A stretch of 64,000 nucleotides of DNA, from positions 416,001 to 480,000 of the forward strand of contig CAVPZX010000002.1 in NCBI GenBank assembly GCA_963710375.1, given 5' to 3'. A program made the translations under genes and the position numbers. Below are positions 4,868 to 45,557 of the stretch, in pieces. Within the stretch, counting starts at the first letter, position 1, and every line of letters begins with the position of its first letter. The DNA is from Nitrospirota bacterium. Lineage in GTDB: Bacteria > Nitrospirota > Thermodesulfovibrionia > Thermodesulfovibrionales > Dissulfurispiraceae. A model generated the notes under the pieces. It saw only the letters and a program-made list of their open reading frames with translations, ran no database searches and was not told where the DNA came from.

Positions 4868-4955
4868 CAGGTTAAGATTAAGGTTAAGGTTAAGAAACAC
4901 CTAAAAAAATTACCTTAGTCTTGGTCTTCTTGACCTCAGCCTTAACCTTTACCTG
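4868..4955. repeat. Inverted tandem-hexamer element (AGGTTA/AGGTTG family)
   Basis: Left arm CAGGTTAAGATTAAGGTTAAGGTTAAGAA; right arm reverse-complements to CAGGTAAAGGTTAAGGCTGAGGTCAAGAA; between nuoB and nuoC. Confidence 0.9.
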
Positions 4956-4959
4956 TCTT

Positions 4960-5484
4960 TTACCTCCACATACTCCACTTGAAGTGTTCTTTTTTTATCT
5001 TTTCCTGAAGCTTGATGATGCCGTCATAGAGAGCTTCAGGCCTTGGCGGGCATCCCGGCACATAAACATCTACGGGCAAAAAGGTATCGGCACCCTGAAC
5101 AGTGCTGTATGTATCGAAGATCCCTCCGCTGCAGGCACAACTGCCCATCGCTATTACATACCTGGGCAAGGCCATCTGGTCATAGACCCTGCGTATAATC
5201 GGGGTCATTTTCTTTGTGATGGTACCCGCGAGAATGATGACATCCGCCTGCCTCGGCGATCCCCTGAAAACTATTCCAAATCTGTCCAGATCATAGTGTG
5301 ACGCTCCCGAAGCCATCATTTCGATAGCGCAGCAGGCCAGTCCAAAACTCATAGGCCATAAGGAAGACAATCTGGCCCAGTCCACGACCTTGTCAAGAGT
5401 GGCTATTATGGTGTTTGCACCGGGAATTACCCGCACACCTTCTTCCACTTCAATCAAATCCGTAGTGTTTTCCAATACCATCAT
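4960..5484 (-). CDS. nuoB: NADH-quinone oxidoreductase subunit B
   Basis: [33 protein letters not shown]. Confidence 0.97.
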
Positions 5485-5512
5485 ATGCCTTTACCCCCCA
5501 CTAATCTGTGCT

Positions 5513-5896
5513 TCAATCCCATTCGAATGCCTCTTTTTTCCAGGCATAGACATATCCTATAAGCAGGACCGCTATGAAAAGCATCATTTCTATCAGCGCA
5601 TAAAGGCCGATTTTATCGTACACAAGTGCCCATGGATACAGGAAAACAGCTTCAACATCAAATATGACAAATAGCATGGCAATAATATAGAACCTGACAT
5701 TGAACCGCTGCCTTGCCTCTCCAATAGGAGGGTTCCCTGATTCATAAGCCATGAGTTTTTCCGGGTAAGGCCTTTTAAGCCTGAACAGCTGTCCGATCAA
5801 CAGCACTACGATTCCAAATAAGAAAGCGATAATCATAAATATTAATACGGGAAAGTATGCGGTGGGCACAAAATTACCTGGAACCATTGTATTCAT
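5513..5896 (-). CDS. nuoA: NADH-quinone oxidoreductase subunit A
   Basis: YESG, RFYIIAMLFVIFDVEAVFLYPW. Confidence 0.96.
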   Translation of the reverse strand: MNTMVPGNFVPTAYFPVLIFMIIAFLFGIVVLLIGQLFRLKRPYPEKLMAYESGNPPIGEARQRFNVRFYIIAMLFVIFDVEAVFLYPWALVYDKIGLYALIEMMLFIAVLLIGYVYAWKKEAFEWD

Positions 5897-6071
5897 CTAT
5901 TACCTCATTTTTAGTCGTTTTTAAGAACCAAATTGCTATTTATAACTTAAGCTGCGGAGGCTTGTCAAGTTAATTAAATTGTATTTTTTTATAAAATTTT
6001 ATTATATTGCTCACTATTTTAGTATATGGCTTCCTTGTTTTTAGCGCGTCAGTTAAGTAAAATCACAGTAC

Positions 6072-6860
6072 ATGAATGTTCTTGAGAAAATAATGCAAAA
6101 AAAGGCCGAACGACTGGCAAACTCAAGAAATATTATTTCGCTTCGAGAGTTAAAACTCACCATCGCAGATGCTGACAATGAAGCGCGGGACTTAAAGAGT
6201 GCTTTGAGCGCCGGTAAGGGGGAAATACGGCTTATTGCCGAGTTAAAAAAGGCATCACCTTCCAAAGGCTTGATACGGCCCGTCTTTGATCCTGCCGAAA
6301 TCGCCTCGCTTTATGAAAGAAAGCGTGTCAGCGCCCTGTCAATCTTAACTGAAGAAGATTTTTTTCAGGGCAGCTTATCTTACCTGAGGACAGTCAGGGA
6401 CGTTACCTCAAAACCCATTTTGAGAAAAGATTTTATTTTTGATGAGTACCAGATATTTGAATCAAAAGCACACCGTGCAGATGCCCTTCTGCTTATTGCC
6501 GCAGCGCTTGAGAGGAACCAGGCCCAGGAATATCTGCATTTGGCCGGCGAATTACATCTCGGAGTCCTGTTTGAGGTGCACAATGAAGAAGACCTTGAAA
6601 AGGCGCTATTGGTAAAGGCTGAGATTATCGGCATAAACAATCGCGACCTCAAGACATTAAAAATCGATCTTTCAACAACGTTTAGGCTGATAAATGAGAT
6701 ACCGGAAGACCGCGTCGTAGTAAGCGAAAGCGGCATCAGAAACAGAAATGACGTTGTAACACTTATGGACGCGGGAGTGGATGCAATACTTGTCGGTACA
6801 TCGCTGATGGCGGCAAAAGATATCGGGGCAAAGATCGACGAACTGATGGGAAACGCCTAA
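6072..6860 (+). CDS. trpC: Indole-3-glycerol phosphate synthase
   Basis: IAELKKASPSKG, LRKDFI, GINNRDL, SESGI motifs. Confidence 0.96.
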   Translation: MNVLEKIMQKKAERLANSRNIISLRELKLTIADADNEARDLKSALSAGKGEIRLIAELKKASPSKGLIRPVFDPAEIASLYERKRVSALSILTEEDFFQGSLSYLRTVRDVTSKPILRKDFIFDEYQIFESKAHRADALLLIAAALERNQAQEYLHLAGELHLGVLFEVHNEEDLEKALLVKAEIIGINNRDLKTLKIDLSTTFRLINEIPEDRVVVSESGIRNRNDVVTLMDAGVDAILVGTSLMAAKDIGAKIDELMGNA

Positions 6861-6965
6861 ATACCGTGAATAGTGAAAAGTGAATAGTGAACGTAAAAGT
6901 CAGAAACAAAAAAAACGTGAGTGCTGTTGACCCTTCACCTTTCACTATTCACGATTCACGGTATT
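6860..6965. repeat. Inverted tandem-heptamer element (GTGAATA family)
   Basis: AATACCGTGAATAGTGAAAAGTGAATAGTGAA ... TTCACCTTTCACTATTCACGATTCACGGTATT between convergent trpC and HNH genes. Confidence 0.9.
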
Positions 6966-7241
6966 TTCTAGATACTCTTCCCATTCCATAGGGAGCAGAT
7001 ACTTCTTATTATTATTGCAGTTTTTGCAGGCGGTCACGATGTTGCCCTTTACAGACTTGCCGCCGCGGGCCAGCGGCACTATATGGTCCATGGTGAGCAG
7101 CCTGGCAGGAACCTTTGCATTACAGTAGTAACATGTGCCGGCGGCGCACTTCCTTTTCCACCAGGTGCTCTGGCGGAGGTCGCGGGCAATGTTGCGCTCT
7201 CTTTTAATATACTCTTCGGTGATATCCGATACGAAAACCAT
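6945..7241 (-). CDS. Small HNH endonuclease
   Basis: CYYC...TMDHIVPLARGG...NIVTACKNCNN. Confidence 0.9.
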   Translation of the reverse strand: MVFVSDITEEYIKRERNIARDLRQSTWWKRKCAAGTCYYCNAKVPARLLTMDHIVPLARGGKSVKGNIVTACKNCNNNKKYLLPMEWEEYLENTVNRE

Positions 7242-10398: not shown

Positions 10399-10410
10399 TT
10401 TCTCCTAAAG

Positions 10411-10526
10411 CCGTGAATAGTGAAAGGTGAAAAGTGAAAGGTAAAAGCAAACAATAAAGTGCCCTTACTCTTTCATCTTGCTTTATTCTATTCACATTTC
10501 ACTTTTAACTATTCACTTTTCACTTT
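10411..10526. repeat. Inverted tandem-heptamer element (GTGAAAG/GTGAATA family)
   Basis: CCGTGAATAGTGAAAGGTGAAAAGTGAAAGG ... TTCACATTTCACTTTTAACTATTCACTTTTCACTTT; overlaps nadD 3' end. Confidence 0.88.
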
Positions 10527-11225
10527 CTTTATTTGGTATAATTTATGTTTTTTTATATACCTTTCCACTGATGCAGGCAAAAGGTACTTGATACTCCTGT
10601 TCTCCTCAACGAGACGCCGTATGCCGGTCAACGATATATCCATCTGCGTAACCGGCACTAAAAAAGCGCTCCTGCCGCTCACCAACTTCAAAGTCCGTGA
10701 ACCGTGAATCGTGAATCGTGAATCGTTAGAGACACCGTGAACTTCTTCTTTTTTCAATTCACTATTCACTTCTTCACTATTCACATTTTTGATATAGGGT
10801 GAGCCTGCGATGGCATCGAAGCCGAATCCGGGACGCCCTACGATAATAAAATCCGTCATACCTGTGAGTTTTTCCGGCTCCCGCCATTTCGGCATATCGA
10901 GGAAGGCGTCGCTGCCGAGGATAAAAAACAGTTCATCTCCGGGATATCTCTTACAAAGCATTTCAAGAGTATCAACAGTATACGACTTACCCTGCCTGAC
11001 GGCCTCGAAATCGGAAACGATGAAGTCTTTATTGGAAGCAGCAGCAAGGGTTGCCATTGCATATCGGTGTGACGCAGCAACAGCATTGCGCTCCTTAAAA
11101 GGAGGATTCCCGGCGGGCACAAAAATCACTTTGTCAAGCCGGAGTTTATACCTCGCTTCCTCGGCAGTCCTCAGGTGTCCTGAATGAACAGGATTGAATG
11201 TGCCGCCAAAGATACCAAGCCTCAT
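10509..11225 (-). CDS. nadD: Nicotinate-nucleotide adenylyltransferase
   Basis: GIFGGTFNPVHSGH, SYTVDTL, FILGSDAF, DISLTGIR; ~30-aa repeat-derived insertion. Confidence 0.95.
   Translation of the reverse strand: MRLGIFGGTFNPVHSGHLRTAEEARYKLRLDKVIFVPAGNPPFKERNAVAASHRYAMATLAAASNKDFIVSDFEAVRQGKSYTVDTLEMLCKRYPGDELFFILGSDAFLDMPKWREPEKLTGMTDFIIVGRPGFGFDAIAGSPYIKNVNSEEVNSELKKEEVHGVSNDSRFTIHGSRTLKLVSGRSAFLVPVTQMDISLTGIRRLVEENRSIKYLLPASVERYIKKHKLYQIKKVKSE
10695..10785. repeat. Inverted tandem-heptamer element inside nadD coding sequence
   Basis: CCGTGAACCGTGAATCGTGAATCGTGAATCG ... TTCACTATTCACTTCTTCACTATTCACA. Confidence 0.88.
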
Positions 11226-11230
11226 AAAAT

Positions 11231-11390
11231 CGTAAAACGTGAGAAAGAACGTGAATAGTGAATAGTGAATAGTGAAGGGTCAACGGCGTTCACTGCTTTT
11301 TTTCTTGTTTCACTTTCTTCTTTGTTTTTATTCACAGCTTTTTGTCTCTGACTTTCCTATTCACGTTTCACGATTCACGATTCACGTTTT
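11231..11390. repeat. Inverted tandem-heptamer element (GTGAATA family)
   Basis: (GTGAATA)x3 GTGAAGG ... TTCACGTTTCACGATTCACGATTCACG, upstream of nadD. Confidence 0.9.
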
Positions 11391-11669
11391 TTACAGCCCC
11401 ATTTTTTTCAGCGCCTCGTCCCCCTGTCCTTTCATTGCAGGGGCATCTTCCGGGAGGTACAGCATAACTCCGCCCTTTACAGGCCTTATAACGATCTTGC
11501 CTTCATGAGAGAGCTGAGTTGTCACTTTGACCGGGTCTTCGCCTTCAAAGTACTTCTTAAACGCCTCGTTAAAGCCGGAATACACTGTATGTATCCCCTT
11601 ATACCCTTCTTTCCTGAGACTAACAATCGCCTTCTTTACAAAATCTTCGTGTCCCAGCTTCTCTGACAT
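11391..11669 (-). CDS. Hypothetical protein (small, basic)
   Basis: Protein-like ORF with AAGGAGG RBS, co-oriented between proA and nadD; start 11669 or 11675. Confidence 0.8.
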   Translation of the reverse strand: MSEKLGHEDFVKKAIVSLRKEGYKGIHTVYSGFNEAFKKYFEGEDPVKVTTQLSHEGKIVIRPVKGGVMLYLPEDAPAMKGQGDEALKKMGL

Positions 11670-12955: not shown

Positions 12956-13022
12956 GAGACAGGTAGTGGGTAACAAGGAAAGAATAGCATTACTTACTAC
13001 CGTATAACCTAATAACCTAATA
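12956..13022. repeat. Degenerate inverted short-repeat element (AGGTAA/TAACCT type)
   Basis: GAGACAGGTAGTGGGTAACAAGG ... TTACTTACTACCGTATAACCTAATAACCTAAT. Confidence 0.5.
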
Positions 13023-13334: not shown

Positions 13335-13400
13335 TGAGGTAATGGGTATATGAGTTAATGAGAGACCATCCTCATACTCATATGCCCTCATACTCAAATA
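13335..13400. repeat. Inverted short-repeat element (ATGAG/CTCAT family)
   Basis: ATGAGGTA ATGGGTAT ATGAGTTA ATGAG ... CTCATACTCATATGCCCTCATACTCAAATA between convergent genes. Confidence 0.7.
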
Positions 13401-14330: not shown

Positions 14331-14430
14331 AATGTTGGATGTTGAATTTTGAATGTTAAATTGTGGAGTGCAAACATTAAATAAATTATTTCCTCCTTAA
14401 TTCGACATTCAGCATTCAACATTCAAAATT
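14331..14430. repeat. Inverted tandem-heptamer element (AATGTTG family)
   Basis: AATGTTGGATGTTGAATTTTGAATGTTAAATT ... AATTCGACATTCAGCATTCAACATTCAAAATT. Confidence 0.88.
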
Positions 14431-15451: not shown

Positions 15452-17478
15452 GGCTGATGAAATATTTCTTAACAGTTTCCGGGCTTCTGCTGCTAATCTC
15501 GGCAATAACGACTGTTGAGCTACATTTTATTAAGCTGTCTTCCGTTGACATAACTACACGGTTCATTCTTATCAGCCTGCTCACATTCAATGTGGTCGCG
15601 CTCCTGACATTGATGTTTTTTGTGGGAAAAAACATCTTCAAGCTTTACATGGAAAAACGAAATAAAGTCCTCGGCTACAAGTTCAGAACGAAACTCATGA
15701 CCATTTTTGTCATCCTCACTCTCATACCCTCTTCTTTTCTTTTCATTGCGGCAAGCGGTCTCGCCACTAATTATATCAACCGCATTTTTTCTCCGCAGCT
15801 GAAAGAACCATTTAAAAAATCGATCGAACTCGTCAGGGCTTTTTACGATTTCGGGCGGCAGAGAGTGCTCGCCGCAGCGGAGCATGCCGCGAGCGGGGGC
15901 CAGCCCATTCCCAGCGACATGTCGGTCCATAAATATGCGTCATTGCCGAAGGATGCGACCGACATCGTAAAGGAAGCTTTTAAAGGCATTAAAGGGACCG
16001 AGATTGTCACAACGAGCAAAGGCGATATCATTAGGGCAGCGGTACCGGACCGCTCACATGGCGGCAAAGGAGTAGTAGTTGTAGAACTGCTCCTGCCCAT
16101 GAGTATTTCAGGGAAATCGGAAAGTCTGGAAGAACTCTATGAGGATTACCTGAAGATCGAGACTTTCAGGAACCCGCTGCGGCTGAATTATGTTCTTATA
16201 CTTGGATTTTTCACGCTCCTGATCGTCTTTGCAGGGCTTTGGGTTTCCCTGAAAATATCCGGGGGGATTACCACACCGATTCAGAACCTGGCGATGGCAA
16301 CTGAACAGGTAGCATCCGGCAATCTTGACGTCAAGGTCACTGCAAAGAGCGAAGATGAAATCGGCCTGCTGATTACCTCATTTAATGAAATGGTAAAACA
16401 ACTCAAAGACAGCAAGGAATCTCTCGAAAAGGCATACATTGAGTCGGACAAGAGGAGGCTCTATCTCGAGAACATCCTTGATAATATCAATTCCGGAGTT
16501 ATCTTTCTTGATAATAGCGGGACAATCCTTACCATCAACAAGGCGGCATGCTCCATTCTGAACATCAGGCCAGAGGCCGTTAAGGGGCATAATTACTTGT
16601 CGTTTATCTCGTCGCTTAATTCCAGGGACATTGCAAACATGGTAAAAGAGATGGAAAACAGGGTGGTACGTGAAATAAAACGTGAAGTCAAAGTCAATAT
16701 TGACGGCAGGATCGCCATACTCAGGCTTTTCGTGTCGGGCATCAGGGAATCGTACACATCAAAAGCCATCGGTATGCTCGTGGTCTTCGATGATCTTACC
16801 GATATAATAAAGGCTCAAAAGGTCACAGCCTGGCAGGAGGTTGCCAGGAGATTGGCCCACGAGATAAAAAACCCGCTGACACCTATCAAGCTTTCTACTG
16901 AACGGTTGATAAAGAAATGGCTGCATAAGGACGATGATTTTGACGCTGTGTTTGAGAAATCAACCCGGACGATCATCTCTGAAGTTGAGAGCCTGAGAAA
17001 ATTAGTCGATGTATTCTCCAGTTACGGCAAACTGCCGGAAGTGAACAAGGCACCGGTCAATCTCCCGGACGTGGTCGATTCTGTTGTCGGCCTGTATAAA
17101 GGGTTTAAGGACATAGAAATATCGACCTCAGTGCAGACCGAAATTCCTCTGTTGGAGCTCGATGCTGAGCAGTTCAAGCGGGTAATGGTCAATATCATCG
17201 ATAACGCCATCAAGGCAATGGAAAGCAAAGGCGCTATTGCTATTTCCTTAAATGCGCAAGAAAATAGTAAACTAATGATTGATATAGCCGATACAGGACC
17301 AGGCATAAAGGATGAGGTGAAAGAGAAGTTATTTTTACCCTATTTCTCAGGCAGAAAAGGCGGCACGGGGCTCGGTCTGGCCATAGCGAACAAGATAATA
17401 GCCGACCATGGGGGAAGAATACTGGTCAGGGACAATATCCCCAGGGGAAGCATATTTACCATAGAATTGCCGCTGTGA
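15448..17478 (+). CDS. NtrY-like sensor histidine kinase (HAMP-PAS-HisKA-HATPase)
   Basis: TM segments, DEIGLL HAMP, AWQEVARRLAHEIKNPLTPI, GTGLGLAI. Confidence 0.93.
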   Translation: MRLMKYFLTVSGLLLLISAITTVELHFIKLSSVDITTRFILISLLTFNVVALLTLMFFVGKNIFKLYMEKRNKVLGYKFRTKLMTIFVILTLIPSSFLFIAASGLATNYINRIFSPQLKEPFKKSIELVRAFYDFGRQRVLAAAEHAASGGQPIPSDMSVHKYASLPKDATDIVKEAFKGIKGTEIVTTSKGDIIRAAVPDRSHGGKGVVVVELLLPMSISGKSESLEELYEDYLKIETFRNPLRLNYVLILGFFTLLIVFAGLWVSLKISGGITTPIQNLAMATEQVASGNLDVKVTAKSEDEIGLLITSFNEMVKQLKDSKESLEKAYIESDKRRLYLENILDNINSGVIFLDNSGTILTINKAACSILNIRPEAVKGHNYLSFISSLNSRDIANMVKEMENRVVREIKREVKVNIDGRIAILRLFVSGIRESYTSKAIGMLVVFDDLTDIIKAQKVTAWQEVARRLAHEIKNPLTPIKLSTERLIKKWLHKDDDFDAVFEKSTRTIISEVESLRKLVDVFSSYGKLPEVNKAPVNLPDVVDSVVGLYKGFKDIEISTSVQTEIPLLELDAEQFKRVMVNIIDNAIKAMESKGAIAISLNAQENSKLMIDIADTGPGIKDEVKEKLFLPYFSGRKGGTGLGLAIANKIIADHGGRILVRDNIPRGSIFTIELPL

Positions 17479-17480
17479 AA

Positions 17481-17596
17481 ACAGGTTAAGATTGAGGTTA
17501 AGGTTAAGAAAAAACTAAAAACCATGAATCAAAAAATTCAGTTTTACATATTATCTGTTATGTATTATCTTAACCTCAACCTTAGCCTTAACCTGT
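17481..17596. repeat. Inverted tandem-hexamer element (AGGTTA/AGGTTG family)
   Basis: ACAGGTTAAGATTGAGGTTAAGGTTAAGA ... TCTTAACCTCAACCTTAGCCTTAACCTGT. Confidence 0.92.
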
Positions 17597-17612
17597 CTTT
17601 AGGGAGTTTAGC

Positions 17613-19191: not shown

Positions 19192-19198
19192 AATATCA

Positions 19199-20575: not shown

Positions 20576-20661
20576 AATTACGAATTACGAATTGGAAATT
20601 AAGAATTGTGGAAAGAGATACTCCTCATTCATTCCTAATTCATAAGTATTAATTCCTAATT
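20576..20661. repeat. Inverted tandem-heptamer element (AATTACG family)
   Basis: AATTACG AATTACG AATTGGA AATTAAG AATT ... ATTCCT AATTCAT AAGTATT AATTCCT AATT. Confidence 0.8.
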
Positions 20662-20677: not shown

Positions 20678-21097
20678 ATGCAAAAAATACTTGTTGCCCA
20701 TGATGGCTCTAAATCGTCCGACAAGGCCCTAAAAAAAGCCATCGAATTATCAATAGGCTTTAATGGATCGCTTACTGTAGTTGCTGTTGTTCCCGAGCTT
20801 TACCTTACGGAACTGCCCGATGTTGATAGAAATCGTATTTTCGAGTCATTATCGAATGAGACGCGGGACGCCATGGAAAAAATAAGAAAATCCCTGTCGG
20901 GCAAGTCAGTCGATGTCAAAACACTCATCAGGCAGGGAGATCCTGCTGAAAAGATATTGGAAACCGCACAAAAAATGAAGGTTGATCTTATTGTAACAGG
21001 ATCCCACGGCAGGCACGGAGCAAAAAAGTTCCTACTGGGCAGCGTCTCATCCAAAGTTGTCGATTATTCCAAATGCTCGGTCCTTGTAGTAAAATAA
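20678..21097 (+). CDS. Universal stress protein
   Basis: KILVAHDGS, DLIVTGSHGR, LLGSVS...SVLVVK. Confidence 0.95.
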   Translation: MQKILVAHDGSKSSDKALKKAIELSIGFNGSLTVVAVVPELYLTELPDVDRNRIFESLSNETRDAMEKIRKSLSGKSVDVKTLIRQGDPAEKILETAQKMKVDLIVTGSHGRHGAKKFLLGSVSSKVVDYSKCSVLVVK

Positions 21098-21280
21098 GCA
21101 GTAGGCACTAAGCAGTAAGCACTAAGCAGTAAGCACTAAGCAGTAAGCAGTAGGCAGCAAAATATAAAAAAGAGACACTTCTAATTCTTTAAAATAATTT
21201 CTTTCTTTTTTTACCGGTCGTTTGTTCTTCACTGTTTTCTGCTTACTGTCTACTCCTTACTGCTTACTTTTTACTGTTTA
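21095..21280. repeat. Inverted tandem-heptamer element (TAAGCAG family)
   Basis: Nine units TA(A/G)GCA(G/C) at 21095-21157; six inverted units CTGCTTA-like at 21239-21280. Confidence 0.93.
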
Positions 21281-22204
21281 CCGCCTTTTGATAAACAGTC
21301 TTAGCGCTTCTTCGTAGCGGACCGGGACAAACCCGAAATGCCTTTCCACTGCATCCGTCTCACAAATATTATCGGTTTCCAGCAGCCGCAGCTGGTCGAG
21401 GGTGACAGATGGGATCTTTTTTCCCAACATGCCGGCAATCCCCTGAAAAATCCTCGATAAAGGCAGTCCCAGTTTGACCATCTCCATAGGGACATGAACA
21501 ATGTGCTTACGGGCGCCTGTTGCCTCCATAAGCAGGGAGAGAAGTTCATTATAGGTAAGATGTTCCGGACCTCCCAGTTCATATACAGGTGAAGCTGCCC
21601 TGTCAACAGGTGACGTGGACGAAAAAAGTTTGATAAAACATTTAACCAAGTCACCGACATAAATAGGCTGAAATTTTGCCTTTCCGTCTCCTGGGACAGG
21701 TACGACAGGACTGGATGCAATGAGGTCTTTAAGCTTTGAGGTAAACCCGTCCCCATCTCCCACAACAAGAGACGGCCTGAAAATAGCATATTGAATGCCG
21801 CTCGTCCTTACGATCTCTTCAGCCTCCGCTTTTGTCTTAAGATACCTTGACCAGGAAGAGGGCGATGCGCCTAGTGCGCTTTGATAAAAAAAATGCTTTA
21901 CCTTTGCTTTCTTTGCTTCGTTGACCAGATTCTCTGTGCCATTGACATGCACCAGGTCAAAACTAAGGCCTTCCTTTTCTTCTATTATGCCGACCAGATG
22001 GACGACCGTATCGCAGTTATCGAGTTTGCCTTTAAGACTTTCACGGTCGGTAATGTCCCCGATGACAACGTCAAAATCCGCTTTTTTGCATATCTCACTC
22101 TTAGCGGCAGATCGTGCCAGACACTTTGCCCGCAGCCCTGCCTCCCCGAGCGCTCTTACGAGATGACTGCCGATAAATCCGGTGCTACCGGCGATGAAAA
22201 ACAT
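21278..22204 (-). CDS. NAD-dependent epimerase/dehydratase (NDUFA9-like atypical SDR)
   Basis: GSTGFIG, VVHLVGII, YLKTKAEAE, FQPIYVGD. Confidence 0.9.
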   Translation of the reverse strand: MFFIAGSTGFIGSHLVRALGEAGLRAKCLARSAAKSEICKKADFDVVIGDITDRESLKGKLDNCDTVVHLVGIIEEKEGLSFDLVHVNGTENLVNEAKKAKVKHFFYQSALGASPSSWSRYLKTKAEAEEIVRTSGIQYAIFRPSLVVGDGDGFTSKLKDLIASSPVVPVPGDGKAKFQPIYVGDLVKCFIKLFSSTSPVDRAASPVYELGGPEHLTYNELLSLLMEATGARKHIVHVPMEMVKLGLPLSRIFQGIAGMLGKKIPSVTLDQLRLLETDNICETDAVERHFGFVPVRYEEALRLFIKRR

Positions 22205-22218
22205 AAAACCCTCTCAAA

Positions 22219-22321
22219 ACAGGTTAAGGCTGAGGTTGAGGTTGAGATAAAAAATAGAGGAAGTACAAAGTGACTTTTTAATTACCATATTCGTTGCTAG
22301 CTTTTTCTTAACCTTGACCTG
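22219..22321. repeat. Inverted tandem-hexamer element (AGGTTA/AGGTTG family)
   Basis: ACAGGTTAAGGCTGAGGTTGAGGTTGAGA ... TCTTAACCTTGACCTG. Confidence 0.85.
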
Positions 22322-22327
22322 AATTTT

Positions 22328-24000: not shown

Positions 24001-24019
24001 GGCACCCCTCCTTGAATTC

Positions 24020-24089
24020 AGGTAATAGGTAATGGGTTATAGGTAATAGAATATTATTACCCATGACCTATAGCCCATAGCCTATAACC
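24020..24089. repeat. Inverted tandem-heptamer element (AGGTAAT family)
   Basis: AGGTAAT AGGTAAT GGGTTAT AGGTAAT ... TATTACC CATGACC TATAGCC CATAGCC TATAACC. Confidence 0.9.
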
Positions 24090-24194: not shown

Positions 24195-24725
24195 ATGATA
24201 AGTCTTAAAGAATTCTTAAAGGTCTTCAGGGATACAGGCTTTGAACGTTCCTTATTAGAGAACTTTTACCGGTCAGTACGAAAATCGACAATCCTTTTGC
24301 ACGTCGGCAAACGCTCGTTATCTGAAATATTTCAGCAGGAAGAAATCCATCAATGGCCAGTATTGCATCGAATCGACAACCCCGACCTGCCACTCTACCG
24401 CGGCGCCGACAAAGTCCTGTTGGATGCGTTCATAAAAACTATTCAAAATGAAAAAACATTGAGAGAGCAAAAAAAACATATGGAAAGAGTCAAATATTGG
24501 AACTCGCTTCTTGAAATCATAGAGAAACGCGCAGAACTGTTCAGGAGTATCTTCAATTTTTGTAAAAAAGACGACCTGCACTGCGAAGCAGTAGCTGAGC
24601 GGTATAAGCGGATTCGAGACCGAAGAGCAAGAAAAAGGCGTACCGCATGGGGGCTGGGCATAGGTGCAGGAACTGCTGCAGGGGCAGCCGCTTTGTGGTA
24701 CATTAAGAAAAAAGAGAGGCAATAG
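24195..24725 (+). CDS. Hypothetical protein with C-terminal Gly/Ala membrane anchor
   Basis: 176-aa ORF, TATAAT upstream, hydrophobic tail flanked by basic residues. Confidence 0.7.
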   Translation: MISLKEFLKVFRDTGFERSLLENFYRSVRKSTILLHVGKRSLSEIFQQEEIHQWPVLHRIDNPDLPLYRGADKVLLDAFIKTIQNEKTLREQKKHMERVKYWNSLLEIIEKRAELFRSIFNFCKKDDLHCEAVAERYKRIRDRRARKRRTAWGLGIGAGTAAGAAALWYIKKKERQ

Positions 24726-24742: not shown

Positions 24743-24745
24743 GTA

Positions 24746-27565
24746 TTATTTTATTTGCCCAAGTGTACGTCCTAACTCTTCAAGGGCCTTGCCTGCTTCT
24801 GCATACTTGCCCTGTCCCATCAGACTGCGGTATTGATCATAATACTTCACTGCAGATTTAATTAATTCTTTGCCGGGGACTTCAGCTTTAACTGTTGTCT
24901 CTTTGGCAGCCTGAGGCGTGTATCCGTTGACAAAAAACTTATTCAGGGCATCCTCGAAGCTGGAGCCATATGAGAGCTGGTCGCCGAATACAACTACCAC
25001 TCTTCTCAATTCAGGCATTTTACCTACCGATGCCTGAAGATAAATGGGCTGGACATACATCAATCTGTAATTTGATAAAGGGATGGCCAACAGATTTCCG
25101 AATACTACTGATGACCCCTGTTGGTTCCATAAGGTCAAATCCTTGCTTATAACCTCATCCTGGTTTATCCTGATGCCTATCTGGAGAGGACCGTACACAA
25201 GTTTGTCTTTCGGTAATTTGTAAAGCATGAGCTTGCCATATTTATCGCCGTCACATCTTGCTATGAGGAGGGCGACCATATTGTTTCGCGGATTGGCTTT
25301 ATCGGCGGAATAAGGAGAGAACGGCAGGGCAAGCACGAACTCTTCCGTTTCGCTGTCGGGCGGGCGCGATATCAGGTAGTAAGGCGCAACATGTGGTGCT
25401 TCCTCCGCCTTTGCCGCAGCGCGTGACACCTCCCAAGCATCTTCACGGTTATAAAAAACATGTGTATTCCGCATGTGATAGGTCGTGTATATTGAACTTT
25501 GGATGTTCAGCAGGTCCTCAGGGTATCTAATGTGCTTTCTGAGCGATGCCGGCATTTCTGCGATATCCATGAACATTCCAGGAAATGCCTTTGCATAAGC
25601 CCTCACAATCGGGTCTGTCTTGTCGGCGATATAAAAAGATACCGTCCCGTTGTATGCATCAACAACCACTTTAATGGAATTACGGATGTAGTTAGTCCTT
25701 TCGTTCGATACCGGCTGAGAATACGGATATGTATTTGCCGTTGTGTAAGCATCCCAGATGAAATATATCCTGCCGTCAGCTACAACATAGTAAATATCCG
25801 AATCATAGCTTAGAAACGGAGCAATCTCCTGGACCCTTGAGCGTATGTCCCTCCGGTACATCACACGGCTTTCAGGGGTGAATTCCTGAGTAGTGAACAT
25901 CCTGATGCCTTCGAATCTCAGGGCAAAGGCAAGCTTCTTGAGAAATGTATCAAGCTTAATCCCGCCTGTGCCGGCATAATTATACTCAACGTTTGTGTCT
26001 CCTTTCGGATAGTCGAATTCCTTGGCCTTTGTTTTTACATATATCGGGTTAAAAGTTTCCTCACCGAAATAAATCCTTGGCTGGTCGAGATTAAGTTCAG
26101 GATACGATGTTGTCGGCGGTATATCTTTCAACAGGTATTCGGGAAGTCCTTCCGGCCCAAATTTGTTGACAGCCGCAACAACAGCGCCATAGCCGTGGGT
26201 GTAGACAAGTCTCAGGTTCTGCCATGTCTTGGACTGAGGGGCAAGCCGGTCGACATTGAGTTCACGGAGGGACAGCATAAGCTGAGTTAGTTTTCCATTC
26301 AGGACATACCTGTCCACCGCAACGTCCGAAAAATAATAATAGAGACGTAATGCCTGGTTCTGATTGTTCGCGGCCTCCAGAATCTTGGGGTCCCAGAGCC
26401 TGATACTGTCCACAATGGCTTTGTCATTTTTTGATATAGGCTCAACAGAGGTGTTAACGGGGTAGTTTACCTCTGCAATTTCATTCAGTCCATAAGCGTC
26501 TCTTGTAAACGCAATATTCCTCTCCAGATAAGGGGTTTCAAGAGGGAGTTCGTTCGGGGACACTCTGAAATGCTGCATGACCTCCGGAATAATTCCTACG
26601 CCGAAGATTTTCACAACAAGGAACAAAGCTACTCCGATAACAAAAGTAGATATTGTTCTCTGCGTTGACTTCGCGAATGCCGAAATCAAAAAAGCAATAG
26701 CACAAATGCCAAGAACTGCAATCATCACATTGTACGCAGGCAGTTGCACATTCAGGTCGGTCCAGCCGGCCCCATAGACAACCCCGCGATGCGAATAGAG
26801 CAACTCCCACCTGCTTACCAGGGTATTAACCATTATGATAAGAGCGCCCACTACAGACAGTAAGGAGAGGTGAGTTATCAGCCTGTGAATAAAAGGGTCC
26901 ATCAGAGACCTCAGGGATATCCTTCTCAAGTTTCCATACTGCTCAAACAACGTAGAAACATCCCTGAACAACAATCCTTCAAGAAAATATAAACCGATAG
27001 TCAGGATTACGGTGTATAAAAAGATAGTTTCCGCAAAGCCGGCCAAGACCTTAATGAACGGCAGCGTAAAAATATAAAACCCTATGTCCGTGTTGAAGAC
27101 CGGCTCTATCTTTCCAAACGGCACTGCATTTTGGTAAAGCAGCAGTTCGTTCCAGTAAACTGACACCCCTAATCCGAACACAATAAAAGCAAAAAACTGT
27201 ACAAGTATGCCGGCCTTTATCAGAAGGACCCGATTGTGATGCAGGACAAACTCAGGTTTTGCCTTCTTGAAATAGTAATTCCATGTCAGGACCGTAATAA
27301 TCCCCATTATGGCGGCAAACAAACCGCCTATGGAAAACAGCGTTGCTTTTAGAAAGACCAACTTCCAGAAACGCTGCGTGTAGCCGACCTCCTGGAACCA
27401 CAGAAAGTCCGTATAGATGTCCTGGCCCAAGTATATCCCCTTAAAGACAAAAATCCCTGCAAGAGCAATCAAGACAGACTTAACATACTGTCTCCTGCCT
27501 GCGCTCCGAAATGCCGGCAGAAAGAACAGCAGGCATACGGCAATCAATATTATAAGATCCAGCAC
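24746..27565 (-). CDS. UPF0182 family membrane protein
   Basis: TDFLWFQEVGY, DIGFYIFTLP, YTHGYG, NYIRNSIKVVVDAYNG, HIRYPEDL. Confidence 0.93.
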   Translation of the reverse strand: MLDLIILIAVCLLFFLPAFRSAGRRQYVKSVLIALAGIFVFKGIYLGQDIYTDFLWFQEVGYTQRFWKLVFLKATLFSIGGLFAAIMGIITVLTWNYYFKKAKPEFVLHHNRVLLIKAGILVQFFAFIVFGLGVSVYWNELLLYQNAVPFGKIEPVFNTDIGFYIFTLPFIKVLAGFAETIFLYTVILTIGLYFLEGLLFRDVSTLFEQYGNLRRISLRSLMDPFIHRLITHLSLLSVVGALIIMVNTLVSRWELLYSHRGVVYGAGWTDLNVQLPAYNVMIAVLGICAIAFLISAFAKSTQRTISTFVIGVALFLVVKIFGVGIIPEVMQHFRVSPNELPLETPYLERNIAFTRDAYGLNEIAEVNYPVNTSVEPISKNDKAIVDSIRLWDPKILEAANNQNQALRLYYYFSDVAVDRYVLNGKLTQLMLSLRELNVDRLAPQSKTWQNLRLVYTHGYGAVVAAVNKFGPEGLPEYLLKDIPPTTSYPELNLDQPRIYFGEETFNPIYVKTKAKEFDYPKGDTNVEYNYAGTGGIKLDTFLKKLAFALRFEGIRMFTTQEFTPESRVMYRRDIRSRVQEIAPFLSYDSDIYYVVADGRIYFIWDAYTTANTYPYSQPVSNERTNYIRNSIKVVVDAYNGTVSFYIADKTDPIVRAYAKAFPGMFMDIAEMPASLRKHIRYPEDLLNIQSSIYTTYHMRNTHVFYNREDAWEVSRAAAKAEEAPHVAPYYLISRPPDSETEEFVLALPFSPYSADKANPRNNMVALLIARCDGDKYGKLMLYKLPKDKLVYGPLQIGIRINQDEVISKDLTLWNQQGSSVVFGNLLAIPLSNYRLMYVQPIYLQASVGKMPELRRVVVVFGDQLSYGSSFEDALNKFFVNGYTPQAAKETTVKAEVPGKELIKSAVKYYDQYRSLMGQGKYAEAGKALEELGRTLGQIK

Positions 27566-29246: not shown

Positions 29247-29433
29247 AACATTGCCTCCTTTTGAGCTGGTGCTTTTTTTCGTTGAAGTAAACCCTGCTTC
29301 GCAGTATATTAAGCAAATGTCTCCTTGCTGTCAATATCGGGAGCCTCTTTTGTGATACATAGCTGAAAATAACATTACTTTTGTTATACTAGGAAGCCTT
29401 ACCTATGACCTATGACTTAACATATGGTGCGCC

Positions 29434-30647: not shown

Positions 30648-32783
30648 ATGAAAAACTTTTTTCTCAATCTACGCATTAAATATAAGATTGGCTCTATTAT
30701 CCTTATGGCGGTCTTATGTGCAATAGCTTTTAGTATAGTATTCCTCACATTTTTACGGAGCAGTCTTGTCAGCGAGAAAAAGGACAAGCTCAGAAACGTT
30801 GTGGAAACAGCCTATGGGGTAATCGCTCACAATCACAAATTATTTACTGATGGCGCAATGCCTGAAGACCAGGCAAAGGCTGCCGCCATGGCTGCACTCA
30901 AAGCACTGCGCTATAACGAAGACGAATACTTTTGGGTCAACGATGACAAGCTCCCTTATCCTACCATGATCATGCACCCGCTGAATCCTGCTCTGGATGG
31001 AAAACCATTGGATGACGCCAAATACAACTGTGCTACCACCATTCAGGCGGGGTTGAAAGGCGCTGAAAACAAAACTGACGGAAAAAAGAACCTGTTCCAG
31101 GCGGGTGTTGAAGTAGCAAATGCGGCAGGCGAAGGATTCATTGCCTATCAGTGGCCTAAGCCGGTCACAGGCGGCGGGGTTTCCGAAGAGCGCTACCCAA
31201 AAATATCTTTCGTCAAGAAGTTTCCGGCATGGAACTGGATCATAGGAAGCGGGATCTATTGGGACGACATTAATACCATTTATTGGCATCAGGCAGAGTA
31301 CGTCGTAACTTTTATCATCGTGTTTATCATCCTGCTCGCCATTATCGGATGGTATGTATCAAATCATATCACCAACCCTCTTTCTGAAATAAGCCGAAAG
31401 GTAGAAGATTTGGCCAACGGAGATTTAACCGTGAAAATTGAGTATACCAGCAAAGATGAAGCAGGCTCCCTTGCCCAGAGCATGAACCTCATGGTTTCAT
31501 CTATCAGACAAATAGTCGGATCAATTATCGAATCCTCAGCAGACGTTATACATTCCGTTGGATCACTAAAGGCAGGCTCTGAAAGAACTCTGGAGGGAAC
31601 GAATAATCAGTCGTTGCAGGCCGCACAGATTGCGACCGCCGCAGAAGAGATGAGCCAGACCATCAGTGACATCGCTCGAAATTCTTCAATTGCAAGTGAG
31701 TCCTCAAAGGAAGCGATGGATACCGCTGCCAACGGCAAGGATGTGGCAGACGGAGCTGTTGAGACTGTTCATCGGGTCTATGCCTCAACTGTGGAACTCT
31801 CGACCATGGTGGATAAGCTCAACAGCAGAGCGCTCGAAATCGGCGAGATTGTCACAGTGATAAAAGATATCGCCGACCAGACCAACCTTCTGGCACTCAA
31901 TGCTGCCATTGAGGCTGCACGTGCTGGGGAACAAGGCCGCGGATTTTCCGTGGTGGCCGACGAGGTAAGGAAGCTTGCTGAAAGGACCATCAAGGCTACT
32001 GCCGAGATAACGGACAAGATACAGGCTGTGCAGGCAGAATCTCAACAAACAAGCCGTTCCATGCAAGATGCTTCAACAGAGGTCACAAAAGCGCAGGATT
32101 ATATCCGGCAGGTGGGCGATTCGTTGAACCATATAGTTGATTCTGTTAGGAGAGTAGAAGATCAGATCACTCAGATTGCCACAGCGGTTGAAGAACAGGC
32201 GAGCGTTGCAGGGGAAGTAACGAGCAACATTGAAAAAACCTCCGATATTTCAAAGGACATGGAAAAAATGGCCCATGATGTGATGGATGAAGTGAACATA
32301 CTTCATGGAGTTGCCGAATCCCTCAAAATATCCAGCGCAGGGTTTCACCTCGACGGCAGTCATGGGCAGACAACTGAAGATTTCATTCAGTGGAGTGATG
32401 TCTTCAGCGTCAACATAAAATTGATTGACGAGCAGCACAAGCAGCTCTTCCGTTTGATTAATGACCTCTATGCCGCATGGAAATCGAACAAGCCACGGGA
32501 AGTCATGGGGAATGTTTTCAGCGGGCTGCTCGATTATACTGATAAGCATTTCAAACAGGAAGAGGAAATATTCAACCGCTACGGCTACCCCGAAACCTCC
32601 AATCATATGGAAATCCACAGGGCGCTCGTTAAACAGGTGGTGGAGACAAAAAACAAGTTTGACAGGGGGGAAATCAAGGTCAATGCCGACATAATGAATT
32701 TCCTCAAGAACTGGCTCAACAACCATATCCTGAGGGTGGACAAAAAATATTCGGCATTCTTAAACAGCAAGGGCGTTGTGTAA
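30648..32783 (+). CDS. Methyl-accepting chemotaxis protein with Cache sensor and C-terminal hemerythrin domain
   Basis: YFWVND Cache, [26 protein letters not shown], hemerythrin ligands QH..., HFKQEE, HMEIH, HILRVD. Confidence 0.94.
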
Positions 32784-32790
32784 GACCGTT

Positions 32791-33519
32791 TCACCTTTCA
32801 CGGTCTTTACGTTCTTCGATAAGAAACTGGACCAGCGCCGTTGCAGCAATTGCCGCAGTTTCGGCGCGGAGAATGCGTCTTCCGAGCGTAGCCCTTACAA
32901 TGCCCTGCCCTTCAGCCTTGCGGACCTCGGATGCAGTGAATCCGCCCTCAGGGCCGATAAAGATATGGACAGTCCGTCCGCTGTCGATAACTCCCATCGC
33001 CTCCGAAAGCGCCCTTCCGCCCTCTTCCCAGAAAAGCAGACCGTTCATTTTTTCCCCATCCAATATGTCGTTCAATTTCTCAGGGTCCCGGACCAATGGC
33101 ACAACCGCTCTTCCACACTGCTCGGCAGCCTCTTCAGCAATTGTATGCCACCTCTTCACCTTTCTCGTTTCTTTAACAATGCTGCGTTCAGTAACAAGCG
33201 GCACAATTTCGGCAACACCAAGTTCTGTAGCCTTCTGAATTACCAGGTCCATTTTTTCACCTTTCAGCAAGCCCTGCCACAGGGTAAGCGGCACAGGCAG
33301 TTCTGCATTCAACGGCAGCTCTCCTGTTATATCGATAAATACATCCTTCTTGACAATCGAGACAATCTCTGCAGCATATGCGCTGCCCCTGCCGTCTATA
33401 ACCGTAACGGCATGACCTTTTTTGCATCTGAGTACCGACAAAAGGTAGCGGGATTTTTCCAGTGGCACCTTAATGTGCTTCCTCTTCGCTATGATTTCAG
33501 AGGGGATGAATATTGTCAT
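32791..33519 (-). CDS. rsmE: 16S rRNA m3U1498 methyltransferase
   Basis: QKATELGV, EAAEQCGR, IGPEGGFT, LGRRILRAETA. Confidence 0.96.
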   Translation of the reverse strand: MTIFIPSEIIAKRKHIKVPLEKSRYLLSVLRCKKGHAVTVIDGRGSAYAAEIVSIVKKDVFIDITGELPLNAELPVPLTLWQGLLKGEKMDLVIQKATELGVAEIVPLVTERSIVKETRKVKRWHTIAEEAAEQCGRAVVPLVRDPEKLNDILDGEKMNGLLFWEEGGRALSEAMGVIDSGRTVHIFIGPEGGFTASEVRKAEGQGIVRATLGRRILRAETAAIAATALVQFLIEERKDRER

Positions 33520-37016: not shown

Positions 37017-37053
37017 GTCATTATACTATAACATTGCCATCCTACGAGAAAAG

Positions 37054-37126
37054 CAGGTAGAGGTTAAGGCAGAGGTAAAAAGATAAAGAGTGATTTATTG
37101 TCTTTTATTTACCTCTACCTCTACCT
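37054..37126. repeat. Inverted tandem-hexamer element (AGGTAG family)
   Basis: CAGGTAGAGGTTAAGGCAGAGGTAAA ... TTTACCTCTACCTCTACCT. Confidence 0.82.
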
Positions 37127-37153
37127 AATGGCATAAGGAGGACAGCGGTTTCG

Positions 37154-43232: not shown

Positions 43233-43247
43233 TAGGCGCAAAGACAT

Positions 43248-43283
43248 AAAAAAAGGGCGACTGTGTCAGTCGCCCTTTTTTTT
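43248..43283. terminator. Bidirectional intrinsic terminator
   Basis: AAAAAAAGGGCGACTG-TGT-CAGTCGCCCTTTTTTTT between convergent genes. Confidence 0.9.
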
Positions 43284-43295
43284 ATAATGACTATA

Positions 43296-43625
43296 CTATT
43301 TCTTGTGACACTTAGCGCAGTTTGCCGGGTCAGATGCCTTGAAAGCCTTTGTACCGTTATGACAGGTGCCGCAGAACTTTCCTGAATTAATGTCAGCCAT
43401 TGTGATCTTCGCCGATCCCTCAGCGCCTGGCGCCTTAAACGGGAAGATTTTTGTGTGGCACTCTTTGCACATGCCAGGTCCAAGTTTAGTATTGTGCATT
43501 TTTCCGTCAAATGTCACCTTCCCCTGAGTACCGTCCGGGAATACCAGAGTCTTCATCGATGCAAAAGCAGAAGTGACTAAGCACAATGTTGCGACCATTA
43601 CAACCATAAGCATAACTTTTCTCAT
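43296..43625 (-). CDS. Triheme c7-type cytochrome c
   Basis: Signal peptide; CKECH, CGTCH, CAKCH; GGAGG RBS before ATG 43625. Confidence 0.92.
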   Translation of the reverse strand: MRKVMLMVVMVATLCLVTSAFASMKTLVFPDGTQGKVTFDGKMHNTKLGPGMCKECHTKIFPFKAPGAEGSAKITMADINSGKFCGTCHNGTKAFKASDPANCAKCHKK

Positions 43626-43662
43626 TTCTTTCACCTCCATTTCATGATTATTTTAAACACCT

Positions 43663-43678
43663 AGCATACCATATACCA
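43663..43678 (-). promoter_or_regulatory. Probable sigma54 promoter of the cytochrome gene
   Basis: Minus strand TGGTATATGGTATGCT, GG-N10-GC. Confidence 0.6.
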
Positions 43679-43728
43679 TACATTTTGTCATAGTATATAT
43701 AAAGAAAACTTATAAATAGAATTTCTTA

Positions 43729-44082
43729 CTACTTTTTATGGCACCTCGTACAATTTGCCTTGTCGTTCACGGAAAAGGCATCTTTCCCGTTATGGCAGGC
43801 GCCACAAAGTTTCCCCTTGTACATATCTTTCATAGACATCCGGGTAGGCGGACTTTCCGGAGTCATGTTTGCAAACACCCTGGTGTGGCAGTCATGGCAC
43901 TTAAATCCTTTGTTTTTATGCAGCGTTCCATCAAACACAACTCTGCCTGCCCCGCCCCCTTCCCAGACAATTGTTCTCCCCGGGGCTACAGCAAGGGCGT
44001 TTTTACAAAAAAATAACTCTGTCACGGCTATCAAGACCATCAATACAAACATTGTATGGCAAACTTTTCTCATGTGAGTCAT
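43729..44082 (-). CDS. Triheme c7-type cytochrome c
   Basis: Signal peptide; CHDCH, CGACH, CTRCH. Confidence 0.92.
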
Positions 44083-45557
44083 GACAATTTCTTCTTCAAT
44101 AGTTCATTCAGCAATTGAGGATTTGCCTTCCCTTTAGTCGCTTTCATGACCTGCCCGACAAAAAAACCTATCAGTTTTTCATCTCCTGACTTGAAACGCT
44201 CAACCTCTGCTGCATATTTAGACATGACTTCATCTACTGCTTTCTCTATGGCTCCCTCATCGCTTATCTGGACAAGTCCTTTTTCCCTGACCACTGTCTC
44301 CGCGTCTTTACCGCTCCTGAACATGTCTTCAAAAACCGTTTTCGCTATTTTCCCGCTTATCGTTCCGTTCTCGATAAGACGGAGCATTCCGGCAAGCTGG
44401 CCTGGCTGTAATGGACAGTCTTCGATTGATATACCGTCTTCATTAAGCATCCGCATCATTTCACCCATCATCCAGTTTGACACTGTTTTGGGCTGCCCGC
44501 CCTCGCTGACAGCACGCTCATACCATTCAGCAACAGCCTTTTCCGAGGTAAGGAGATCTGCGTCGTATTCGGGCAGGCCATACCGGACCGCAAACCTTTG
44601 GCGTTTTGCATCAGGCAATTCCGGAAGACCGGCTTTGACAGCATCAATTATTTCCCGGCCTATTGCCATAGGCACAAGGTCAGGCTCAGGAAAGTACCGG
44701 TAATCATGGGCTTCTTCCTTTGTCCTCATGGACTGAGTAATACCCGCCCCTGCATCCCAGAGCCTAGTCTCTTGCTGGACATTACCGCCTTCCTCCAGCA
44801 CTTTTGTCTGGCGCCTTATCTCATATTCCAGCGCCCTTTCGACAAATCTGAATGAATTCATATTTTTCAGTTCCGCCTTGACCCCGAACTTCGTCTGCCC
44901 GACTGGGCGCACAGACACATTGGCATCGCATCTGAGAGAACCCTCTTCCATATTACCGTCACACACTTCGAGATACCTGAGAATGCTCCTTACCTTTTTC
45001 ATGTACTCGGCCGCTTCTTTGGGGCTTCTGATATCCGGCTCTGAAACGATTTCCATGAGGGAGACTCCGGCACGGTTCAAATCGACGAAACTGTGATTTC
45101 CCTTTCCCTCATGGATATTTTTTCCTGCATCATCCTCCATATGTATTCTCGTGATCCCGATCCTCCTGACCTCTCCGTCAACCAGTATTTCTATAAAGCC
45201 GCCTATGCATAGCGGGAGTTCGTACTGGCTAATCTGGTAGCCTTTCGGCAGGTCGGGATAGAAATAATTTTTTCTGGCAAACCTGCTATAAGGGGCGATA
45301 CTGCAGTTCATGGCAAGCCCGGTTTTGATTGCAAAATCAACCGCTCTCCGGTTAAGCACCGGCAGGACGCCCGGCATGCCTATGCAGACAGGGCATGTCT
45401 GAGTATTGGGTTCGGCGCCGAATTTTGTCGAACAGCCGCAGAATAACTTTGTATCTGTCAGCAGCTGGGCGTGCACTTCAAGCCCGATAACCGCTTCATA
45501 CTTGCACCCTCTCGGGCCTCGGGCGTCCGGCGTGAGGCGTTCAGCGTCTGACATCAT
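44079..45557 (-). CDS. gatB: Asp/Glu-tRNA amidotransferase subunit B
   Basis: [40 protein letters not shown]; start ATG overlapping gatA stop with AAGGAGG RBS. Confidence 0.96.

Follow-up and report, generated by a model that had tools for sequence, protein, structure and literature searches.

The 64,000-nucleotide stretch considered here, hereafter the window, is G000:C2:416001-480000, a section of contig C2 of the Nitrospirota genome G000 (the source genome; 3.19 Mb, 98.8% complete). Scattered along it are hairpin elements built on a single plan, in which a tandem array of short units is followed by a spacer and then by an array of the same unit inverted. The original prediction suggested that these may be non-autonomous remnants of a repeat-flanked mobile cassette rather than ordinary terminators, and it pointed to similar heptamers beside genes for four-helix-bundle proteins of the IVP family (PF05635) in some genomes.

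For detection of the elements, tandem arrays of 6- to 8-mers were sought, and two inverted arrays no more than 200 nt apart were counted as a pair. The strict form of this detector returned 5 pairs in the window at score 9 or 7 pairs at score 7, and no array pairs in randomised versions of it (20 block shuffles and 20 order-3 Markov sequences). Seventeen window stretches were folded, each against 60 dinucleotide shuffles, and z values of -3.1 to -8.5 were obtained for 13 of them; weak folds were found at 12956 (z -1.5), 20576 (-1.9) and 22219 (-2.1) and for a solo arm at 29398 (-0.5). All of the elements listed beforehand were present at their places. Junctions were then compared with those of seven congeners (333 conserved junctions) by a classifier that overlooks some short or degenerate copies; among the relatives named below, G003 is 6% contaminated and G004 is 81% complete. 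Coordinates are those of the window, and no strand is assigned to any element.

The first element, an AGGTTR hairpin, fills the junction between the nuoB stop and the nuoC start (4866..4956). The G002 copy is 99% identical to it, the G003 copy has lost part of its sequence and that of G005 is of the GTGAATC type, and the junction is empty, at 9 bp, in G006 and G007; no recombination tract was seen round the G002 copy, where the flanks remain 85-96% identical. Past the trpC stop, a GTGAATA hairpin (6859..6966) occupies a convergent junction that carries the same family in G002, AGGTAAT-type and AGTAAGC-type elements in G003 and G007, respectively, and nothing in G004 and G009. Three elements accompany nadD: a GTGAAWR hairpin over its 3' end (10408..10526), a GTGAATM hairpin within it (10695..10785) and a GTGAATA hairpin between the stop of the 11391-11669 gene and the nadD start (11228..11392), the last at a site that is empty in G004, G006, G007 and G009. 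A degenerate AGGTAR/ATAACCTA element, the weakly folding one at z -1.5, lies 5' of proA (12958..13022), where G003, G004, G006 and G007 have other units. Past a 59-amino-acid gene, at a convergent junction, an ATGAG-type hairpin (13335..13392; z -6.6) has counterparts with a different unit in each of G002, G003, G004, G006 and G007, and G009 is empty. Between the hisI stop and the start of a HIT gene there is an AATGTTG hairpin (14331..14430), with the same family in G002 and G003, an AGGCAAT type in G007, an empty junction in G004 and G009 and a 33-kb insertion in G005.

Further along, an AGGTTR hairpin joins a sensor kinase stop to the ntrX start (17478..17599); GTGA-type elements take this place in G002 and G005, an AGGTCAT type in G003 and an empty junction of 18 bp in G009. 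The usp gene has an element on either side. Upstream, just 3' of a conserved -10-like box, is an AATTACG hairpin (20576..20661; z -1.9), represented by AGGTTA types in G002, G003 and G005, by other units in G004 and G007 and by an empty site in G009; past the usp stop, at a convergent junction, is a TAAGCAG hairpin with nine left copies (21093..21289). An AGGYTR hairpin separates the fumarase alpha-subunit stop from the start of the following gene (22216..22327), a junction that is empty in G002 and G009 and has other units in G003, G005 and G006. An AGGTAAT hairpin (24016..24088) stands 5' of a methyltransferase gene, and a short AGGCAAT hairpin absent from the earlier list was found at 24716..24747 (z -4.8), with other units in G002 and G007. 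The remaining stretches are a solo right arm, ACCTATG, with no hairpin (29398..29418; z -0.5), a GTGAA remnant hairpin at a convergent junction (32782..32808) where G005 has a full GTGA element, and an AGGTAG hairpin 5' of ettA (37053..37128; z -5.0). The series had been drawn to end at 45557, and repeat sequence is indeed found there, but as a solo run of GC-rich heptamers over the first codons of gatB, where gatA and gatB overlap (45511..45557); it has no hairpin partner, and its membership is uncertain. The operon genes first named were confirmed by NCBIfam for nuoB/nuoC and ntrX; the name ntrY rests on context, because the kinase 5' of ntrX scored only as a generic sensor kinase.

Across the source genome 702 arrays and 193 inverted pairs were counted, compared with 58-72 arrays and no pairs in three block shuffles, which bears out the expectation that the counts would exceed chance. 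A second, more sensitive pass gave 257 elements (187 array pairs and 70 arrays with an inverted match), while 319 arrays stayed solo. The units fall into ten or more unrelated families, chief among them AGGYTR, GTGAAWN, AGGCAAT/AAAGGCW, GAAGKTGA, AATTAMG and AATGTTG, and arms of 5 units are the commonest (171 of 374). By our own gene calls (3065 genes), 186 elements lie at co-directional, 30 at convergent and 28 at divergent junctions, and 13 lie inside open reading frames (ORFs). These proportions match the background junctions (2323, 369 and 364, respectively), which argues against terminators; copies also occur within operons, in nadD and in 23S rRNA, and on this point the first reading of the window stands. 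No element enrichment at synteny breaks was found in four relatives, and the trend in G005 was opposite (p 0.06). Adjacent elements less than 60 nt apart number zero in the merged catalogue, in which merging hides nested cases.

Gene-junction placement holds for most of the elements and fails for the copy at 10695, which is an in-frame insert inside nadD, a single ORF (10509-11225). In protein alignment, this insert is present in the source genome, G002, G003, G005 and G009 and absent from G004, G006 and G007. In both rRNA operons of the source genome, the loop of a variable 23S helix is lengthened by 138 nt, an AGGTTR hairpin that replaces 6 positions of the RF02541 model (about 282-288). Over 16 loci of relatives the same helix carries AGGTTA, AGTAAGT, GAAGGTGA or GTAACA types or is short, being short in G001, G018 and G027 and having other units in G002, G003 and G015; G003 has two stem types in its two rRNA operons, in a genome that is itself partly contaminated. 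Another hairpin lies between tRNA-Ile and tRNA-Ala in the source genome. Separately, a 25-nt insert was noted within GTGA arms of G005, G002 and G003 (21 core matches in 360 kb of G005) and in the nadD in-frame copy; the arms of the source genome lack it, with chance matches only.

A profile search agreed that the window holds no PF05635 gene; six in the source genome score over the Pfam cut-off. All six lie directly between inverted arms of like unit, often with the start codon within the left arm, so that the cargo-bearing copies anticipated elsewhere in the genome do exist. Their arm units are GTGAATA, AGGACTG, AGGCAAT, AGGTTA, GAAGTTGA and GCAAAGG, and all six cassettes are outside rRNA; the gene of the 6-mer clade is at C5:318207-318572 and that of the GTGA clade at C8:73097-73483. 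Two of these IVPs were run against TIGR02436 and scored 112 and 120 bits (cut-off 24). In a strict inverted-arm test only 5 of 878 small genes of the source genome passed, three of them IVPs, and among IVPs of the order 31 of 51 passed the strict pair test, compared with 58 of 2418 mismatched cross-genome pairs. No GxxExxY (PF13366) cargo was found in the source genome. The densest part of the genome in elements is a region of polysaccharide and sugar-nucleotide genes (G000:C5:175000-282000 and 316000-330000; 13 per 100 kb on C5), which has five of the six IVP genes, on that contig, and repeats translated within several ORFs. Another member of the order with a complete genome, G016 (contig C1), carries IVP at seven loci, some of them interrupted by internal stops, besides numerous 6-mer hairpins with common spacers.

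The IVP was modelled as a monomer and gave a four-helix bundle (pLDDT 95.7) that matches the pentameric Xcc0516 structure 2GSC (E 1.6e-16, model TM 0.90) and also BT_0352 (2RLD); against Avd (4DWL) the TM was 0.80 at 11% identity. From these three structures an Avd-like homopentameric ring is predicted for IVP.

When 51 IVPs of the order were placed in a tree, with rows below 45 bits or 85 residues left out, they fell into well-supported clades by unit class and not by host. Support was 100/100 for the 6-mer clade (7 rows, 5 genomes), 100/99 for the 8-mer GAAG clade and 100/99 for the GTGA clade, and the six IVPs of the source genome sit on six separate branches. Relatives of the 6-mer IVP were then taken from GTDB genomes as the best 80 of 165 confirmed, with phyla assigned by record title. 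They span 46-95% identity and over a dozen phyla, the closest being labelled Nitrospirota. Period 6 was the best flanking array in 69 of the 80, or 65 of 76 once four top rows that possibly repeat tree rows were dropped, against 1 of 44 non-clade IVPs. Their 6-mer consensus is AGRYYR, an inverted pair is present at 49, and no rRNA motif was found in the 80 loci.

Gene-less copies were surveyed in 120 other genomes of the order with two patterns, AGGYTR and GTGA. AGGYTR hairpins occurred in 4 of 5 genomes with a clade IVP and in 8 of 115 without one (p 3e-4, with kin not independent); the three genomes with more than 20 matches all carry the clade IVP, and a reversed control pattern gave none in the 120. 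The GTGA pattern was found in only one of the 120 and is hence uninformative. In proA-region DNA from outside the genus, 6 hairpins were counted in 317 kb from 12 IVP-positive genomes (all from three of them) and none in 367 kb from nine IVP-negative genomes, a weak comparison.

Loaded and gene-less alleles of one site were found at the PGM|manC junction (G000 C5:326786|326860). There G002 and G007 have an IVP of the 6-mer clade, the source genome and G003 a gene-less 6-mer hairpin that retains the first IVP codons, and G005 a gene-less hairpin that retains the IVP stop region. The adjacent junction has a 6-mer IVP in G007 and an empty 8-mer hairpin in the source genome, and a short element at C5:278256 contains a 22-codon IVP fragment. 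Together with the armed IVP genes, these alleles support the proposal that the hairpins are non-autonomous remnants of a repeat-flanked cassette.

Across the seven congeners, elements appear, vanish and change unit at orthologous junctions, so that presence/absence variation, as had been foreseen, is common and is accompanied by unit swaps. Between the source genome and G003, 17 junctions have different units, 2 the same, 9 an element in the relative only, none in the source genome only, and 43 are empty in both. In contigs about 95-98% identical, from two studies, 9 bases stand in place of a 137-nt CACAGAGA hairpin, and another element is swapped for 184 other bases. The units also shift in concert: GTGA units ending in C make up 94% of 308 in G005 and 27% of 312 in the source genome, and in ten orthologous GTGA elements, whose spacers are partly conserved, 59 of 66 units end in C in G005 and 22 of 57 in the source genome. 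Since both arms are affected and background A>C substitution is symmetric (4.2% vs 4.5%), elements are rewritten in place, genome-wide; in two cases the IVP arms of each genome match that genome's own unit variant. Where the source genome has the hairpins at window 14331 and 6860, G005 has insertions of 33 kb (G005:C12:193701-226915) and 14 kb (237363-251796), both bordered by repeat arms, the former holding an IVP cassette. In G003, an ORF of 1.1 kb lies between AGTAAGT hairpin arms at the orthologue of the window junction 21097/21278 (L038). Its end resembles, by motif, what we take to be an IS630-family transposase, and the ORF looks like a later insertion.

From these observations we lean, with some caution, towards the reading that the hairpins are gene-less members of a selfish element without an enzyme of its own, whose IVP recognises the element's repeats and promotes their copying by host recombination or repair. 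The full cassette would consist of a repeat arm, the IVP gene and an inverted arm, with the hairpins as its non-autonomous members. The IVP ring may recognise its own word through about five units, and binding might drive both spread and rewriting, the host machinery copying elements into gene ends and over existing hairpins. Copies would survive at stop codons, in rRNA helix loops and in surface loops of proteins, where a closed hairpin is tolerated, as in rRNA intervening sequences. The copied intermediate may be DNA rather than RNA, a choice that we regard as evenly balanced: DNA is favoured by strand symmetry and by the lack of reverse transcriptase, RNA by fixation at transcript ends and in rRNA and by RNA binding in Avd.

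Several observations weigh against this reading. No catalytic motif and no partner enzyme was found for the IVP element, and a loaded cassette was not seen to have jumped recently, because the closest IVP copies (L004/L076/L125 and L005/L069/L123/L127) are at orthologous sites. The strict pair test was failed by 20 of the 51 IVPs, and the copy count hinges on the tolerance chosen, 2 mismatches per unit. Gene and repeats are also found apart: 6-mer hairpins occur in the 8 of 115 genomes lacking a clade IVP and are missing from one of the 5 that have it, hairpins occur in G004 (81% complete), where PF05635 matched nothing, and the AATT and AATG families of the source genome have no IVP there. 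Gene-less paralogues are not near-identical (88-95% over 60-165 nt, the rRNA operon duplicate excepted), and one IVP of G016 has an internal stop. A search for relics of IVP ends in 179 spacers gave no signal in the 6-mer, 8-mer and AGGC classes, and that in GTGA spacers was rejected as arm overlap; most empty copies would therefore either have decayed or stem from copies that were themselves empty. The linkage between unit and clade can arise when gene and arms are inherited together, although this explains less well a 6-mer consensus kept at about 50% protein identity or gene-less copies that track the protein.

A second explanation is that the hairpins are RNA elements kept by the host as RNase III sites or mRNA stabilisers, with IVP an RNA-binding regulator and the swaps reflecting selection for any hairpin. 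This we consider unlikely, though far from negligible. It would account for the fact that junction occupancy is conserved as the unit changes (Fisher p 8e-11 for G003, 2e-9 for G005 and 0.002 for G002) and for the stop codon found no more than 15 nt from 149 of the 186 co-directional elements and from every one of the 30 convergent ones. It also fits the copy behind the conserved -10-like box upstream of usp, the copies in the 23S helix, the RNase III gene present in the source genome and RNA binding by Avd, as treated in the preprint 10.1101/2023.10.23.563531. Against it, arm mismatches show no strand bias (401 G-U vs 365 A-C, p 0.21), and the sense strand is the more stable in 99 of 186 elements, so no RNA-strand preference is apparent. 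The background-like orientation classes, the in-frame copies, the many relatives with no element at the same junction and the absence of the two surveyed patterns from most genomes of the order likewise count against upkeep by the host.

A passive origin, in which polymerase slippage would lengthen the arms, template switching make them complementary, ectopic gene conversion even them out and exchange of alleles between species swap them, with the IVP genes riding along within inherited arms, is rather improbable. Slippage as the source of abundant heptamer repeats has been proposed before, as PMC4692102 and PMC4679880 cite; the arms vary by whole units, no target-site duplication is seen and no enzyme would be needed, and the 23S helix stem type common to G002 and G003b is as allelic exchange predicts. 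It counts against such a process that a fast-mutating 6-mer consensus is retained next to a single protein subfamily in many phyla, where protein identity is about 50%, and that gene-less copies co-occur with that subfamily at the genome level. Terminal motifs and some spacers are, moreover, common to families at unlinked loci, and the purine-rich arm comes first in 186 of 193 pairs. For spacers, 23 non-orthologous pairs with a common 14-mer were found (17 within one unit family) against 0.16 in shuffles, several of them in one repeat-rich cluster and one being the rRNA duplicate. The identical spacers of C2:686597 and C2:1070228 were considered as a fresh copy and rejected, as they belong to that duplicated rRNA operon.

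That these are ordinary MITEs (miniature transposable elements with inverted repeats) or elements like repetitive extragenic palindromes (REPs), moved in trans by some transposase, for instance RAYT/Y1 or IS630, IVP being a passenger, is very improbable: the terminal inverted repeats, lack of coding capacity, small size and high copy number, the one Y1_Tnp gene (PF01797), the short duplications of stop or ribosome-binding-site regions at two junctions and the TAA directly outside the arm at each end (76 and 74 of 139, background 24%), which on flanking both arms behaves as part of a symmetric end, would all suit it, but target-site duplications of at least 7 nt occur in 5 of 187 elements (permuted mean 4.05) with none consistent in filled/empty alignments, no arrays lie within 1.5 kb of the Y1_Tnp gene, the cargo found between matching arms is IVP and not a transposase, no fewer than ten unit families, unrelated to one another, are present, and the paralogues are not near-identical as are those of the two true MITE families of the window. 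The first of these, a 182-bp MITE-like element between ntrX and der (19011-19192), is unrelated to the repeat hairpins; it has 11 copies in the source genome (mostly 88-95% identical) and many in congeners, and at its own site relatives have a repeat hairpin or nothing. The second, also of 182 bp with 34-nt terminal inverted repeats (52240-52421), has about 27 or more copies, mostly 89-98% identical, and a partial end near 57370.

Other features of the window were noted in passing. The long AT-rich stretch at 56500-57420 has a possible small uncalled ORF besides the MITE end. At 6945-7241, an ORF of 98 amino acids matches the section of a Cas9d profile that contains HNH, weakly (47 bits against a cut-off of 375), and probably encodes a small HNH protein. 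A gene judged by eye to be tRNA-Arg lies at 48150-48226 between the ORFs 47143-48069 and 48256-49593.

Compared with known systems, the hairpins are not members of the MITE, REP/RAYT, terminator or retroelement classes, and they overlap rRNA intervening sequences in two copies only. Enrichment at operon or convergent ends, with none inside operons or ORFs, would mark intrinsic terminators and was not found, and the source genome has no reverse transcriptase (PF00078). REP/REPIN-RAYT systems, MITEs and Rickettsia palindromic elements are likewise short dispersed hairpins at gene ends with autonomous and non-autonomous partners and occasional in-frame insertions in proteins; unlike them, the present elements have arms of tandem words, no target-site duplication and a partner gene that is not a recognised transposase. 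The short tandemly repeated repetitive sequences (STRR) of cyanobacteria were reportedly treated by Vioque in 1997.

In Coxiella, tandem heptamers precede the S23p start in a 23S intervening sequence whose stem is cut by RNase III, the function of the protein being given as unknown (PMC4990558, in part). There, as here, inverted repeats enclose a PF05635 ORF, which in our case has the 2GSC-like four-helix fold, and two of about 257 copies here are, like an rRNA intervening sequence, a stem-loop in a 23S helix, although gene-less. The differences are that nearly all present copies lie outside rRNA (244 of 257 at protein-gene junctions and 13 in ORFs, counts that include the rRNA copies), that no IVP gene of the source genome is in rRNA and that the 23S site is neither helix 9 nor helix 45, which that paper names; gene-less dispersed copies and a match between protein and unit, both found here, do not appear in the available part of its text.

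Two sets of heptamer repeats come closer in their placement. Xanthomonas genomes contain gene-less inverted pairs of GGGAATC, of stated unknown function, and Nostoc has GGGGAYT repeats (Rehm et al. 2015, PMC4692102). Like ours, the Xanthomonas pairs (mostly four units, 70-75 convergent pairs per genome) are intergenic, near ORF ends and variable in length between species. The available text of that paper describes one unit per genome, reads the repeats as G-quadruplex motifs and does not contain the words four helix; the present system has at least ten units, the majority of which could not form a G-quadruplex, and each is tied to an IVP subfamily. The TAACTGA repeats that MacGregor (2015, PMC4679880) described in Beggiatoaceae, Cyanobacteria and Bacteroidetes share heptamer arrays at operon-internal junctions, a patchy distribution across phyla and stops in all frames of one strand. 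In the part of that paper available they are described as direct repeats, with S1, Csp and CsrA as candidate binders and no IVP, and it is suggested that a repeat-binding protein might itself be the mobile element.

No account of the match between IVP subfamily and unit, of gene-less derivatives or of rewriting was found in the literature covered, which mostly excludes subscription journals; two 2026 language-model preprints have no mention of four helix, Avd or heptamer in their main text, and their supplements may list such clusters. On present evidence, the system as a whole would be new, with several of its parts already described. More tentatively, and at somewhat less than an even chance, it may represent a class of selfish DNA without transposase, integrase or reverse transcriptase, found in many phyla, in which each IVP subfamily is a five-fold ring that reads five copies of its own word of 6-9 bases, one per subunit, and drives the copying and rewriting of hairpins at gene ends, and of which heptamer repeats, ORF-bearing rRNA intervening sequences and Avd are faces or offshoots. 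Such a system links three open questions, namely the function of the very common IVP family, the over-representation of 6- to 8-base repeats and the origin of rRNA intervening sequences. A code that pairs protein subfamily with repeat word and persists from phylum to phylum would amount to a novel mode of recognising nucleic acids, and spread and rewriting of hundreds of intergenic spacers by an element without its own enzyme would, if true, be a new route of genome change.

The homology between PF05635 and Avd is already in print (PMC10053308; 10.1101/2023.10.23.563531). IVP differs from the Avd of diversity-generating retroelements in its 11% identity and in its surroundings, since the IVP genes examined have neither a reverse transcriptase nor a template or variable repeat next to them; PF00078 itself was found in 7 of 9 congeners and in neither G007 nor G009. 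The fold is nevertheless the same, and Avd is a pentameric nucleic-acid-binding barrel in the service of a mobile element. The reading of IVP as a ring that recognises its own repeats would, if true, show where Avd came from.

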